64,000 nt of DNA from Chlamydiales bacterium (GTDB lineage Bacteria > Chlamydiota > Chlamydiia > Chlamydiales > JACRBE01), in assembly GCA_016213235.1 (NCBI GenBank), contig JACRBE010000055.1, positions 15,803 to 79,802 of the forward strand. The letters are read 5' to 3'. Positions 54,001 to 60,000 of this stretch are shown piece by piece; positions within the stretch are counted from its first letter, which is position 1, and every line of letters starts with the position of its first letter. A program made the position numbers.

Positions 54001-57000
54001 ATATATAGTAAGTAAGCATATTGAAGTCACAGAAGGAATGAGACAACATATTCTTGATAAACTTTCTAAACTCGACAAATTGACAGATGCTATTTTAGAT
54101 GTTCATGTAAGATTAGAAGTAGAAAAGAAAATACATCATAATGTCTCCCTTACAATCATGTATGCACATACTAAAATTAGATCGCATGCATCTACAACAG
54201 ATTTGTATGCTTCTATAGATAAAGCAATTGACCGTTTAAAAATTAAACTCGGTCATTGGAAGTCAAAATTACAACAGCACCATGCAAAAGGCTTTTCTGT
54301 TGAAGAAATACCAGTTAGTGTACATCAGGGGTTTGATCTAGAGGATGTCAATGATCAAATTGACGAAGAAAGCAGAAAAAAAACAGATCAGCGTTTTGCT
54401 CTTCCAAAGATTGCTAAAATGAAAAAACTGGCGATAAAAACACTTACCTTAGAAGAAGCTATGATGAAAATGGAATTATCAGATGATAATTTCATGATCT
54501 ATCGATCAGAGGAAGATCATAAATTGAAGGTAATTTATCGTCGTAGAGATGCTACCTATGGTGTTATTGCTCCAGAATAAGATTTATGATGCCATTCGTA
54601 AAAAGTGGGTGAGTGCTACTCCGGAAGAATTAGTAAGACAATATTGGATACAGGTTATGGTCCAGGAGTTGCACTTTCCTATAAACTCTCTTGTAGTAGA
54701 AAAAACGTTAAAAGAGATACCTCTTTTAGCTCTTCCAAAGAGAAAAATTCCAAATAGGCGATTTGATCTTATTTGTTTCCATCAGAAAGAGACTGAGATA
54801 AAACCACTAATGATGGTGGAATTTAAAGCGACATCCTTGTCTGAAGATGTTTTTAGTCAAGTGATAGGGTACAATTTCTATATACAGGCAGCATTCATTG
54901 CCATTGCAAATCAAACTGCGATCAAAGTAGGATGGTATTGCAAAGAAAAAAATGCTTATCAAGCAATGGATTATTTGCCAACCTATCAAGAGCTAAAACA
55001 ATGGAAATAGATTTCGGCCAAACGAAATATGCTTCACTTATTAAGCAGATAGAGCATGTATCCCCTGAGTCTTTTGCTCCTCCTACACAACACTTCTTAC
55101 TAGATGACTCACTCCAATTGCTGATTTTTACACAGATTGATTTTTCCTTTCACTATAGCAGCATATTGAATTGGATGAATGAAGATAAAACGGTGATTTT
55201 TTTAGAAAAAAACCTAGGGAAGATAAAGAGCTTTTTTAATGTTCCTTTTGCCGTGAATCTGATTCAATCAGAGCATGTATTTATTTATCATTATGATGAT
55301 GATGCGATAATAAAAAAAATTGGCTGGGAGTATTTAGGATCAGCGTACCAAGTTCATGGAAAAAAAGAAGAAGATATTGTTTATATTAAACGCATCATGG
55401 AAGGTATCATGTTGGTTGCTGCAGAATTTCAAGATTTTGGCGCAGCTACCTTTCATAATGTCTTTCAAAATGTATTATCTTCTTCCTCTATTTCTTGTGG
55501 TAAGGACCTATTTGGACAGTTTCAAGATATTCCGGCTATCATTGTAGGAGCAGGTCCCTCATTAAATCATGAGATAAATCAATTAAAAGCATGGGAAAAA
55601 CATGGCCTTATTTTTGCAGGAGGATCTGCACTAGAAGCTCTCTCTAAGGAAAATATTACGATTCATTTTGGATCGAGTATTGATCCAGATCCATCCAGAC
55701 ATCGATTTTTAAACTTTACTCAATTTACCACTCCTTTTTTTATACAATTTAGAATGTCTAAAGCAATTTATAGAGAAATCCAGGGAAGTAAAATTTGGAT
55801 GGGAAATAGCCCTGGATATCCTTTAGAGGAATCCTTATATGAATCAATGCAATTACCCCTTATCCAATTTGATGGGGGATGGGTAGTGTCTAATTTTTTA
55901 TGTCATGTTGCTTATTTGCTTGGATGTAATCCCATTATCTTTATAGGAATGGACCACTGCTGGAAAGAAAATGAAATTTATACTAAGCAAGTATCAGTAA
56001 AAGAAGAGAGAAAAGGCTTTATTGTCAAAGATATGCATGGGAATGATGTACTAACAAGAGCCGATTTTTTTTGGGCAAATGATTGGTTTTCTACTTTTGC
56101 TAAAAAACATCCGGAGGTGGCATTTATTAATTGCACATCATCTGGATTATCTATGCCGGGTATAGAGCATTTGTCCCTTAGTGCAGCCTCTATGCGATTT
56201 GCAAAAGAGGAAAAACAACTACAGGAAATGATACATTGTCAGCTAGAGCAGGCAAGCAAATTACCCCTAGATAAAGCAACTGTTTTTTTTCAGCAATTGA
56301 TGCAAAGCATGCAAACATGTACAGAATATTGTCAAAAAGCACTTCTATTGATGCAGCAAAATTATGAAAGAGGTTATACACAATTTGAAGAGATAGAAAA
56401 GATAATACCAGAGATAACACAGGAGTTGTTTTATCAAAAGGTACTCATGCTGATGTGGGAGATTTGGAAATATCCTCATTTAAAACTAAATCCTCACCCA
56501 CAAGTGGCAAAGGTATTACTTTTCCTAGATGTGCTAAATACTTACTTGAATATTTTTATTCATTAAGAGGGAAAAATGATCCGTGAAACATATCTTTTTT
56601 CTGATGGAAGGTTAATCATTAAAGAGCCCAGCTTTGGAATTTTTATTGATGCTACGTTTGAACTATTGTTGATTAATGAAAAGATGGATAATTGCCTTAT
56701 AGAAAGAAATTCCAAAGGCAATATTGTAAAAGCATTTTTTATGAAAGATGATTTATTAGATGGTCAGATGAGACTTTTTTATGATAATGGCTCATTAAAA
56801 GGTGAAATGTTTTACAAAAAGGGTCTCCTGTATGGCCCTTGCAGGTTTTTTTCCTTAAATAATAAGGTATTATCTATTACTTGGTATTATGCCGGGAAAA
56901 AAGAGGGAAGGGCGTCCAAATATTATGTAGATGGCTCAGTGTATTCCGAAGAAAAATATTTGGATGGTCTTTTACAGGGAATACAAAAATATTATGATGG

Positions 57001-60000
57001 CCAAGGCACCATAAAAACAGAACTCTCTTATGAGCATGGTAGACCTCATGGTATGGCTATGTTGTATTGGAAAGAGGCTCATTTAAAAAGAACAACATGT
57101 TTTCAATATGGGTTAAAACATGGCGAAGAAAAGATTTGGAATGAAAAAGGTGAGCTAACCGATCACGATTATTATGAAATGGGAGAAAAAAAATCTTCTG
57201 TACCTATAACTGGTCAGTATATTGAGGAACAGTCTCGTGCTTGATATAGCCTCTGCACATTTACTCGAGAAAAATCCGTCTCTTGGATTTCTTATTAATT
57301 GGATAGATGTAAAAAAGAAGTACGATAAAGAAAATATTTCTATTGAAATAGATACACAGCCTCATGTAGAGGCCATTTTTTTATATGGGGTAGAAATTTT
57401 TCATCATGGACTAGAAGTAGTAAAGTGGCTTGAGCAAACATCGCATCATCTTATTTTATTGGAAGAAGATCATCAGAAAATAAAACTTTTTTTAGAAAGT
57501 GATGAAGCCATAAGATTATTAGAATTAGATAATGTATTGTTTTTTTCGCCCATCTACAGCGGTTATATAGAGGAATCACTGCTGCTCTGCATAGAGCAGT
57601 GTCCCATTGCAAATCTCCTTTTTTTTTCCTCATCTACAAAAACAGAGGCAAAGGACGTTAGACAGAAATTAATTCATTTATTGCTGATTAGAAGAGGAGA
57701 AATAGCAGAACATCTTTGTTTAGATAACTTATTTGTGAATCTTTATAACAATATTCAGCAGCTACCCACTGCTAAATCTATTTATGGCATGAAAAATGCA
57801 TGTAAAAATATCCCTGCAGTTATTTGTGGAGCGGGCCCCAGTTTAAAAAATCATATTGAACAATTGAAAAGCTTGCAAGATAAAGCATTTATTTTTGCTG
57901 GTGGATCGACCATTGCAGCACTTAATCATCATGGAATTTTTCCTCATGTACAAGTAGCAGCTGATCCTACCAAGAAAGAATATACCATTCTTAAAGGGGC
58001 GTATGCTGTAGAAAGACCATTACTGATGGAACTAAGAACTCGTTTTGATATTCGTCATACAACAAATGGAGATGTAGCATTTGCTATTAATGCATATGAT
58101 CAATATTTCCTAACCTGGTTAATAGATAAACTTCAGATGAAAGAAGTGTTTCAAGATGAAATGCAAAGCGTTGGTGGTAGTAGCGTTACCATGCTCTGTA
58201 TTGATTTTGCAATCTGGCTTGGATGTAATCCAATTTGTTTAGTGGGTGTTGATTTAGCATATAAGGATAACAAAAAATATATCGATGGAGCTCCTGTAGA
58301 TCAGATGATGGATGCATTTTTAGAAGAGGGAAAAGATACTCATATTATCGTAGATGAGGGAGTCGTAACATATAAAAAATCACCAGGGAAAAATATCCTC
58401 ACACAAAATAGATGGATCATGGAAGCAGAGGAAATTGAAGATAAGGCAAAGAAATATCCGTCTATTCAGTGGATGAATTTAAATGAAGAAGGACTTGGAT
58501 TTTCTCATATTCCTTTCGTGTCCTTTAAGCAGATAAAGGAGCATTATTTTTCTAATACATATGATTTAGATGGAATAATGCACATGCTCTTTCAACAGGC
58601 GCCTACATGTACAGCAATATCTATAAAGGATCAGCTCTCTTTATTAAAAGAGAGCTTTTATCGAATAAAAGTAATTTATGGGGAATGCTTAGTAAGCAAT
58701 GCAATATCAGACTCGGCCCAATATCAGCTAGATGAAGAGATAGGATACTTGTTATTTCTCAGTCCACTGGAAAAAATATTAAAAAATAAAAGGCTTTTTG
58801 GGTATTCTTCTAAAAAAATCCATGCGCTTTTATTGGAAAAAATCGGGCAATTAATCTCGATAATGGAGCCTTAAGTGAGTTTAGTATGGAATGGTAAGTT
58901 GAGTCATATTGATGTGACAATTCATGCGCTCCCTGCATTAGCAGATAATTATATTTTTATGCTTGTTTGGGAAAACAAGGGGATTTGTATTGATCCAGGC
59001 GAGGCAAAACCTGTAATAGAGTTTGTAAAACAATATGACTTGGAATTAACAGCTATCTTTATTACACATCACCATGCAGATCATATGAATGGAGTAGCAG
59101 AATTAGTAGAGAAATTTGATACCAATGTACTTGGTCCTATTCATGAAAGTCTTGGATGTGTGCAGCAAATGGTAAACCCGGATGATGAATTGATTACAGG
59201 TCCATTTATTATTAAAGTACTTGCTGTTTCAGGACATACTAAGGAACATGTTGCCTATTACTTTACAGAAAAACATTTACTATTTTCTGGAGACCTTGTT
59301 TTTGGTGGGGGATGTGGTAGAGTAGTAGATGGCACAGTAGAAGAACTCTTTTCATCGATTAAAGCTGTAGCCCATTTACCAAAAGATACAAAAATCTTTT
59401 TTGCTCATGAATACACATTAAATAATTTATCCTTTGCTAAAACAATTGATCCGGAAAATAAGATGTTGGATCAAAGATATAAAGAAGAAGAAAGACGTTT
59501 TTCTTTACATGAACCGACGGTCCCTACGACTCTAGAAGTAGAATTTCACACTAATCCATTTTTTAGAGTAAAGGAACATAGCATCAGAAAAGTGCTGCAA
59601 ATGGAAAGTGCTCCAGATTTGGAAGTGTTTGCAAAAATACGTCTATTGAAAGATCAATATGGAAAAAAAATCACACCTTAACTTATTAATATTTTCAGGT
59701 TAAAGATTTGAAAGCAAATACATACTTAAAGCTAAGTTATAACTTTTTATTATTGTTATTATGCGCATGTTCTGGACTGGAACAATCGCAAAATGAAAGG
59801 ATCAAGCGCAATAATGAAGTCGAAGAATTCATTTATCGCAATGATAACGAAAAAGTATATCCTGATGTTGTATGGATTGTTCAAGAGAGAGAAAAGTATC
59901 CTTGGGAAGAAGAATATCTTGGAACAATTCCAAAAATTACAAAGGAGTATTTTCGTTGCAAAGGTAAGTCTGATAATAAAGAGCAGATAAGATACAACAA

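Follow-up and report, generated by a model that had tools for sequence, protein, structure and literature searches.

We identified in a chlamydial genome a pair of paralogous Maf-type glycosyltransferases, MafA and MafB, which are encoded in one row with a MORN-repeat protein and belong to a lineage devoid of flagellin and of the nonulosonate synthase NeuB. Our leading but tentative reading, to which we assign a probability of roughly 45%, is that the Maf-MORN operon is a non-flagellar protein O-glycosylation unit that uses CMP-Kdo as donor, derives from a flagellin system and has type III secretion substrates as its likeliest acceptors. Its basis is fold, catalytic residues, distribution, gene fusion, donor inventory and the expression of a relative's genes; from these we infer transfer activity, Kdo as donor, a protein acceptor and an ancestry in flagellin glycosylation.

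In the window (the whole stretch of 64,000 nt that was analysed, to which all positions refer), the row lies on the + strand. It opens with hpf, encoding a long ribosome hibernation factor (53981..54580; PF02482 and PF16321, TIGR00741), and continues with a small PD-(D/E)XK-like HSDR_N_2 protein (54558..55010; PF13588, E 5.3e-15), MafA (55001..56566, 521 aa), a 222 aa MORN_2 protein with MORN repeats (56576..57244; PF07661) and MafB (57237..58874, 545 aa). Every junction from hpf to MafB is overlapping or shorter than 10 nt. MafB begins at a GTG located 8 nt past a GAGGA, within a longest frame of 550 aa. The following gloB (58875..59681, +; TIGR03413 over cut-off) starts at zero gap 3' of MafB and is probably co-transcribed with the row; as a neighbour it is variable (9 of 79 related loci). 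The row is thus present as the first-pass annotation had described it, but it is confined to one chlamydial lineage, the other having a fused Maf-MORN. The exact gene order recurs in 39 of the 79 related loci, hpf in 58 and HSDR_N_2 in 60; these loci are the best-scoring among 477 stretches and therefore a non-random sample. In P. amoebophila, hpf (pc0338) is found apart from the Maf genes (pc1359-61), and the HSDR_N_2 gene stays beside hpf, away from Maf. The HSDR_N_2 motif is intact (E23, E24, D70, E88-x-K90), its columns being invariant in 73 sequences. We regard hpf as a conserved neighbour that probably has no part in the glycosylation chemistry; the HSDR_N_2 protein is likewise a conserved neighbour for which a glycosylation role is not supported. 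Comparison of 67 upstream regions yielded no conserved motif for a sigma-54 promoter 5' of hpf.

Both paralogs had been credited with the full-length Maf fold, and AlphaFold2 models of MafA (pLDDT 90.0, pTM 0.88) and MafB (pLDDT 86.1, pTM 0.87) indeed match 5MU5 end to end. The MafA model aligned over 475 residues (model range 1-521; Foldseek E 5.1e-17, Z 27.9, rmsd 7.1) and the MafB model over 491 (range 1-545; Z 27.1, rmsd 7.1), with MptE as distant runner-up (Z 14.5 and 14.4, respectively). A PDB search with the single sequence gave nothing useful whereas a profile found 5MU5. The central PF01973 (MAF_flag10/DUF115) domain scores above the curated cut-off in MafA (residues 165-323, E 1.4e-33) and MafB (E 3.4e-37), in line with the Maf family name already assigned by automatic annotation, and resembles GT42 CstII/CstI in both models (Z 9.6-10.6). 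Maf_flag10_N gave no Pfam match at E<=0.1 in either protein, though the N-terminal region superposes on 5MU5. MafA and MafB share 23% identity over 408 residues. Sequences of the NeuB-bearing lineage form a separate group in the Maf tree (SH-aLRT 95), and a sister relation of MafA and MafB is not resolved by the trees, which had an outgroup of only 7 non-chlamydial-looking matches.

Profile alignment equates D228 and D318 of MafA, and D241 and D337 of MafB, with E324 and D415 of 5MU5. These acids are conserved in 178/179 and 179/179 chlamydial Maf sequences, respectively, and both are kept in all 53 MafA-clade members. MafB S314 corresponds to the essential serine (CbMaf S334) by motif and by spacing (23 residues N-terminal of D337, the CbMaf distance) rather than by direct alignment to CbMaf, and is kept in 47/49 MafB sequences. 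MafB therefore carries all three positions known to be essential in Maf enzymes (D241, S314, D337). MafA has Val295 at the serine position, and its clade shows T (23), N (23), H (3), V (3) and S (1) there (n=53); change is tolerated at this position, since Asn is the usual residue in the NeuB lineage as well. The MafA clade further has a specific D355 and has lost a Glu that is invariant in every other chlamydial Maf. Judged by sequence, the paralogs are non-equivalent, MafA being without the essential serine, and MafB appears the likelier catalytic subunit.

Maf is found in 204 of 260 chlamydial genomes, and only four of these 204 encode flagellin. The proposed occurrence of a Maf-type system outside flagella is thereby upheld by 200 genomes. 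NeuB divides the Maf genomes in two: it is present in 66/67 of one lineage and in 0/137 of the other, which contains the studied genome and includes records named Simkaniaceae, Rhabdochlamydia and Anoxychlamydia. Among Maf-less genomes, 1/56 has NeuB. Only full-length NeuB matches were counted, weak partial ones (E >1e-13) being set aside by score and length as KdsA/DAHP-synthase cross-matches. Most of the 137 genomes retain two Maf copies.

This distribution bears directly on the donor. The studied genome has one CTP_transf_3 gene, which passes the KdsB cut-off and adjoins rmlCDB, as well as KdsA (22648..23457, - strand; TIGR01362 over cut-off), encoded in a kdsA-lptC-lptA-lptB cluster 31 kb from the Maf genes; a heptosyltransferase gene lies 37 kb from them in the same window. 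A strong CTP_transf_3 gene is single in 40/41 NeuB-less genomes and doubled in 14/14 NeuB genomes, KdsB typing applying to the studied genome and CTP_transf_3 counts to all others. According to a preprint, two Maf enzymes add Kdo (+220 Da) to flagellin Ser/Thr in E. coli, and Maf accepts Kdo in such heterologous systems if it is the sole donor available (bioRxiv 2020.06.03.131540). CMP-Kdo had been suggested as the only CMP-activated ulosonic acid of the cell. This is supported for the NeuB-less lineage, where it is the only CMP-ulosonate in evidence and likely the donor because NeuB is absent and the CMP-transferase single, but does not extend across Chlamydiota. NeuB in nearly all Maf genomes of the other lineage indicates that the older donor was most likely a nonulosonic acid, and that Kdo use would most likely be a secondary switch. 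Against the proposal, kdsA and kdsB are unlinked to the Maf genes and LPS alone fully explains both (WaaA in 256/260 genomes).

In all four flagellated genomes with Maf, a ParA/FlhG-like gene and the sigma-54 two-component pair directly border the Maf-MORN locus, and in one of them fliM lies inside it. Since the locus adjoins flagellar regulators, the Maf pair probably represents a re-used system that descends from flagellin glycosylation in a flagellated chlamydial ancestor. We know of no chlamydia in which flagellin has been demonstrated as a Maf substrate, and one of the five flagellated chlamydiae in our sample (G085) is without Maf and NeuB; both points count against the leading reading. 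Flagella are described as ancestral in chlamydiae in two studies (PMC5604735; PMC9816063). The MORN protein is fused to the Maf C-terminus in 20/79 related loci and lost together with Maf: about 120 of 205 Maf genomes, counted by hand, have a match to it at E<=1e-20, and the best match in Maf-less genomes reaches only 1.0e-14. It is likely an adaptor or acceptor-binding subunit.

Expression data come from P. amoebophila, a member of the NeuB lineage and not of that studied here. Between 48 h and extracellular bodies, its three Maf genes rise 2.9-4.3-fold and its needle gene likewise 3.2-fold, while kdsB, kdsA, lpxC and waaA fall to 0.37-0.75, and the elementary-body proteome contains two Maf proteins (PMC5451489 supplement). 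Type III secretion substrates as acceptors are a guess. A small helical gene immediately 5' of Maf in 21/99 loci belongs to a family (HHalign profile-profile comparison 97%, controls <2%) that flanks the needle operon in 23/30 loci. The family also sits between greA and nqrA, which we take to be the position of CT635. The latter is a putative type III chaperone (PMC5962693). Against the reading, the family is pan-chlamydial (52/62 genomes), occurring in Maf-less families too, and the Maf operon of the window has no copy. The family's first HMM reached only E 0.012 in the studied genome, and the ESM Atlas gave no usable match for the small helical protein. A search for acceptors found none. The needle protein, detected in 18 of 30 genomes examined, was rejected as the obvious candidate since its Ser/Thr content does not differ between Maf-bearing and Maf-less genomes, and the Ser/Thr-rich ORFs of the studied genome comprise many effector-like proteins among which no single candidate stands out. 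A further point against the reading is the strict specificity of known Maf enzymes for the cognate flagellin (PMC11339370).

Other explanations were weighed against the same evidence. It is unlikely, yet worth serious consideration, that the pair are protein glycosyltransferases with a non-Kdo donor, be it a CMP-ulosonate derived from the host, a sugar made by an unrecognised synthase or, following altered specificity, a different nucleotide sugar. The nonulosonate pathway that accompanies Maf in the sister lineage (66/67), clade-specific changes near the donor site of MafA and MafB, a second full CTP_transf_3 in one NeuB-less genome (G060) and the unlinked kds genes would fit such a donor, whereas the missing NeuB (0/137), the single CMP-transferase (40/41) and the acceptance of Kdo as sole donor favor CMP-Kdo. 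That the pair decorates LPS, or some other glycan of the cell surface, with Kdo or a similar sugar in the manner of GT42 sialyltransferases appears improbable. The CstII/CstI-like catalytic domain, rmlCDB beside kdsB and the heptosyltransferase are compatible with it. However, both proteins retain the N- and C-terminal Maf domains, no glycosyltransferase or LPS gene was among 104 of the 272 neighbouring ORFs at 20 loci, WaaA is near universal, and Maf and LPS genes change oppositely through the P. amoebophila cycle. The lipooligosaccharide target, which the first-pass annotation had offered as an option, is weakened by the retained domains and the neighbourhood. Replacement of WaaA by Maf was also rejected, WaaA being present within the same genus.

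A more distant prospect is that the pair performs no sugar transfer in this lineage and serves with the MORN protein as a nucleotide-binding scaffold or regulator. In its favour, this lineage has neither the original donor pathway nor flagellin, MafA is degenerate at two positions, and the entry title of SteA, a protein of related fold, indicates a non-enzymatic or regulatory use; conservation of MafB's three essential positions (47-49 of 49 sequences), of both acids in MafA (53/53) and of two copies in most genomes points the other way. We consider it very improbable that the proteins are MptE-type pterin pyrophosphokinases substituting for FolK, as the Pfam name, the second fold match and the scarcity of FolK (0/4, 1/23, 7/56 and 4/37 genomes in families f1, f9, f10 and f7) might suggest. 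This identity was rejected: the next enzyme, dihydropteroate synthase, is absent in 10/10 FolK-less genomes (six single-contig), family f6 has FolK in 27/30 genomes and Maf in 29, MptE aligns to only about 195 residues of the 521 and 545, and the Asp of MptE's A-D-G, a metal ligand, is replaced by Gly in the proteins studied here. Finally, it is scarcely credible that ordinary flagellin glycosylation operates with its flagellin and sugar pathway unassembled. The genome is 81% complete and lacks a detectable WaaA that 256/260 relatives have, so the assembly has gaps, and five sampled chlamydiae are flagellated. Yet neither flagellin over cut-off nor true NeuB was found in four genomes from its own family, which are 91-97% complete, or in the 137 of the lineage, FHIPEP is a single gene, and chlamydial flagellins gave no real match in the studied genome (best E 0.029). 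The reported absence of flagellin and NeuB is thus confirmed, and its attribution to an assembly gap fails.

In the preferred reading of a CMP-Kdo-dependent protein glycosylation unit, MafB would be catalytic, MafA a diverged partner of other specificity or reduced activity and the MORN protein an adaptor. This cytoplasmic unit would act before export, attaching a keto-deoxy-ulosonic acid supplied in CMP-activated form (as CMP-Kdo in the NeuB-less lineage, drawn from the pool common to LPS synthesis) to Ser/Thr residues of a protein other than flagellin; type III secretion substrates packed into the infectious elementary body are the best guess for the acceptor. A flagellated ancestor of the chlamydiae would have used the system to glycosylate flagellin, and it would have been retained once the flagellum was lost. 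A broader scenario, that most environmental chlamydiae re-targeted flagellin glycosylation to the injectisome, with one large lineage using CMP-Kdo through a MafA-MafB-MORN complex and loss in a small-genome family fitting Chlamydiaceae, is rather doubtful. If it is true, protein O-Kdo glycosylation would for the first time be known from a native system, and a Maf would for the first time have a natural substrate other than flagellin, both on the infectious form of a symbiont that lives inside cells. Kdo-type protein glycosylation in Chlamydiota had been presented as new; Kdo transfer to Ser/Thr by Maf is already published for heterologous E. coli systems, and novelty would lie only in its native use. 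With some 200 of the sampled genomes having Maf but no flagellin, in one lineage with and in one without a nonulosonate pathway, and with Maf expression towards the infectious stage in a cultured model, an accessory system of the flagellum has here outlived the flagellum itself. Unseen glycosylation is predicted in environmental chlamydiae, visible as fixed mass shifts in existing proteomes, and new O-ulosonyl transferases might become available for glyco-engineering. Our search, to which subscription papers were mostly inaccessible, found no published discussion or functional study of chlamydial Maf; gene-content tables of PMC9816063 may list the family.

Compared with known systems, MafA and MafB share with the Magnetospirillum magneticum Maf (5MU5) the three-domain fold, the GxGPS motif, the two essential acids and a cytoplasmic location, at 11-14% identity in the structural alignment. 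The same features are found in the Geobacillus kaustophilus and Clostridium botulinum enzymes, the two for which Kdo transfer onto Ser/Thr was seen in E. coli. Unlike these, the chlamydial lineage has no flagellin or flagellar locus and no nonulosonate pathway, and its pair consists of two anciently diverged paralogs with a MORN partner that is fused in relatives. Archaeal MptE (PDB 8SD5), which gives PF01973 its name, shares the core fold (Z 14.5, 195 aligned) and the GAGPS motif but is a single short domain of under half the length with an A-D-G motif that is not kept here. GT42 sialyltransferases are encoded in lipooligosaccharide loci. CstII/CstI of this family share the CMP-ulosonate-binding central fold, but are without the Maf N- and C-terminal domains and act on glycan acceptors. 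The chlamydial Maf-MORN genes of flagellated and NeuB-bearing lineages, among them P. amoebophila pc1359-pc1361 (MAF_flag10 in the PMC5451489 supplement), are of the same family, with late expression and in many cases an hpf/HSDR/ctcC neighbourhood, and differ in having a nonulosonate synthase, a second CMP-transferase, a Maf often fused to MORN and the small helical gene 5'.

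The five genes of the row were recovered at the coordinates placed in the first-pass annotation, all on the plus strand. The row starts with hpf (53981-54580) and continues with a gene for a 150-aa HSDR_N_2 protein (54558-55010), MafA (55001-56566), a MORN-repeat protein (56576-57244) and MafB (57237-58874). Its junctions consist of overlaps of 23, 10 and 8 nt and one 9-nt gap, and gloB starts at the first base past the MafB stop codon. The interval between recO and hpf (53247-53852) contains tRNA-Arg(TCG) and a gene resembling nucleoside 2-deoxyribosyltransferases; in relatives, this slot holds other genes, often encoding Methyltransf_24 proteins. 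Over 408 residues, MafA is 23% identical to MafB. Confident AlphaFold2 models of MafA and MafB (28 and 36 aligned relatives as input) matched 5MU5, the Magnetospirillum magneticum Maf structure, along the whole chain (Z 27.9 for MafA, 27.1 for MafB; rmsd 7.1 for both), so that the three-domain Maf fold claimed previously holds for both proteins. Only the central domain was matched by archaeal MptE (Z 14.5 over about 195 residues) and by CstII-type sialyltransferases (Z about 10). 5MU5 was also reached by sequence, using a profile of 28 chlamydial sequences (E 4e-14). The family label is not new, since one homolog carries the NCBI name 'motility associated factor glycosyltransferase family protein'. 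A folate-kinase reading, plausible at first since most of the lineage lacks FolK, was rejected: the next enzyme was missing in 10 of 10 FolK-less genomes.

Distribution was determined in a sample of 260 genomes scored across the phylum: 259 of at least 90% completeness and our own genome. Kin among them are not independent. PF01973 exceeded its cut-off in 204 of them and was absent from whole families (f4, 0/29; f11, 0/5; one weak match among 18 genomes in f3), while flagellin exceeded its cut-off in five, four of which also carry Maf. Full-length NeuB (E below 1e-60) was found in 67 of 260 genomes: it is present in 66 of the 67 Maf genomes of one family set and in one of 56 Maf-less genomes, and no match at this threshold was seen in the 137 Maf genomes of the family set holding our genome. 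This lineage-wide distribution removes the earlier caveat that flagellin and a nonulosonate pathway might merely be unassembled in an 81% complete genome. The NeuB-based family sets agree with the Maf tree, where the MafA and MafB groups (clades A and B) unite loci of NeuB-less families with Simkaniaceae-, Rhabdochlamydia- and Anoxychlamydiales-titled records, and in which NeuB-bearing and flagellated genomes fall with records that bear Parachlamydiaceae and Waddliaceae in their titles.

Three residues are described as essential in Maf in the accessible part of bioRxiv 2020.06.03.131540: E324 and D415 (5MU5 numbering) and a conserved Ser. The corresponding positions are D241, D337 and S314 in MafB and D228, D318 and V295 in MafA, with the Ser position placed by spacing and motif. 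A non-catalytic role of the Maf pair appears unlikely; of 179 chlamydial Maf sequences, 178 retain the first acid and all retain the second. At the Ser position, 47 of 49 MafB have Ser, while most of the 53 MafA have either Thr or Asn and the NeuB-bearing lineage has mostly Asn. MafA further carries an Asp at a position that is mostly Lys in other chlamydial Mafs and has lost a Glu invariant across 126 other sequences. Support for clades A and B is strong, both in a FastTree tree of 188 sequences and in an IQ-TREE analysis of 51 of these (SH-aLRT 99 and 98), and each clade has invariant residues of its own; MafA and MafB are therefore both under selection, yet not equivalent. We read MafB as the safer pick for the catalytic subunit.

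Kdo is the probable donor in the NeuB-less lineage. Among 60 chosen genomes, 40 of 41 NeuB-less ones carry one strong CTP_transf_3 gene (in two pieces in one case), the exception being G060 with two, whereas two such genes are present in 14 of 14 NeuB genomes. The single copy of our genome is KdsB, and KdsA lies inside the window. Kdo transfer by Maf is already known in E. coli (bioRxiv 2020.06.03.131540, accessible part). A donor other than Kdo, for which the second gene of G060 would leave room, seems unlikely to us. Transfer to a glycan or LPS instead of protein is likewise rather improbable: WaaA was found in 256 of 260 genomes, and LPS Kdo transfer therefore does not require Maf. WaaA had no match in the assembly of our genome, though LpxC, KdsA and KdsB are present; this is probably an assembly gap, and the same genus has WaaA. 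NeuB loci show a recurring operon of cytidylyltransferase, NeuB (with or without GNAT) and HAD phosphatase, and four of those scanned passed the PseI cut-off. The HAD phosphatase suggests a 9-phosphate route to a Kdn- or Neu5Ac-like sugar. In the NeuB-bearing lineage, a recurring order among the NeuB loci of 20 genomes (L064-L083) is cytidylyltransferase, GNAT-fused NeuB, HAD phosphatase and an unknown protein; a few genomes have PseI instead. Our literature search found no paper on chlamydial nonulosonic acids.

Among the 79 best related loci, 39 have the complete row hpf-HSDR-Maf-MORN-Maf, 10 have shorter or varied forms of it, and 20 encode Maf-MORN fusions whose fused part aligns over the whole length of the free MORN protein. 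By hand count, strong MORN-protein matches (E at most 1e-20) are present in about 120 of the 205 Maf-matching genomes, and no match in Maf-less genomes was better than 1.0e-14. Fusion and co-distribution thus make the MORN protein part of the system. hpf and HSDR are conserved neighbours which lie apart from the Maf genes in P. amoebophila. A peptidase M15-like protein with a lipoprotein-like start (59708-60541) is near Maf genes in 25 of the 79 loci. Elsewhere in the window, two paralogous effector-like ORFs of 338 and 327 aa share a Cys-rich segment and have no Pfam match (60624-62855), the stretch 47146-52109 holds a protein kinase-like ORF and, after it, three related proteins of 345-372 aa, which begin with long hydrophobic segments and resemble inclusion-membrane proteins as judged from sequence, and an SNF2-like helicase is found as two adjacent ORFs of 637 and 515 aa (5708-9178), possibly a split gene or an assembly error.

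In all four flagellated Maf genomes, a Maf-MORN pair adjoins a ParA/FlhG-like gene and the genes for a sigma-54 sensor and activator. In three of the four, hpf and HSDR are located upstream, and one has fliM inside the row. Flagella followed by differential loss have been inferred for the chlamydial ancestor (PMC5604735 and PMC9816063, accessible parts), and glycosylation is not mentioned in the accessible main text of either paper. The Maf row likely descended from a flagellin glycosylation system, with two reservations: the flagellated genome G085 has neither Maf nor NeuB, and a second Maf group occurs in two flagellated genomes. One of these, G145 (loci L050, L223), carries three tandem second-clade Mafs about 5 kb from its type III export cluster. 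Each flagellated chlamydia has 4-10 Flagellin_N matches (L038-L042), several in 560-620-aa proteins.

The Maf system is alive without flagella. In the accessible parts of PMC5451489, P. amoebophila pc1359-pc1361 are listed as MAF_flag10 (supplement file 2), with two of them in class late II and two represented in the elementary-body proteome. Between 48 h and the extracellular bodies, the three genes rise 2.9- to 4.3-fold and the needle gene sctF 3.2-fold, pseI is flat, and kdsB, lpxC, kdsA and waaA fall; the accessible main text does not mention the Maf genes. Since P. amoebophila has PseI, these data bear on protein timing and not on Kdo.

Of 99 loci, 21 have a helical gene of 135-180 aa immediately before Maf; none of these 21 belongs to clade A or B, and a flagellated one is among them. 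The profile of this gene matched a family (HHalign 97.2%, E 4e-11; 1.9% when reversed, at most 0.6% in 20 shuffles) that adjoins the scc4-cdsD-cdsE-needle operon in our genome and in 23 of 30 loci. Other members occur between greA and nqrA, the position which we take to be that of CT635. CT635, at 144 aa (PMC1403754), agrees in size with the helical family and has been called a putative type III chaperone (PMC5962693; accessible parts of both). The helical gene may provide an indirect lead to the acceptor. However, the family occurs in 52 of 62 genomes, Maf-less ones included. The Maf operon of the window holds no copy, and needle proteins showed no Maf-linked difference. pc1358, the gene in front of pc1359-pc1361 in P. 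amoebophila, belongs to class late II and is represented in the proteome (PMC5451489, accessible parts); our guess from its position is that it belongs to the small helical family. Our genome has two CT635-like helical genes outside the window, on contig C42 (L182:7409-8293). They are neighbours of the injectisome needle operon, and after them come three paralogous proteins of 250 aa and translocator-like ORFs; the usual copy between greA and nqrA was not located in this genome.

In conclusion, a Maf pair outside flagella is real, widespread and apparently undescribed. Our literature search, which covered openly accessible papers and part of their supplements, found none that deals with chlamydial Maf, and the accessible part of PMC11339370 reports no natural non-flagellin Maf substrates. 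MafA and MafB resemble the flagellin Maf family in fold and catalytic residues but differ from it in that their lineage has neither a cognate flagellin nor a nonulosonate pathway. As these two defining features are absent, we file the pair as a Maf-like variant.
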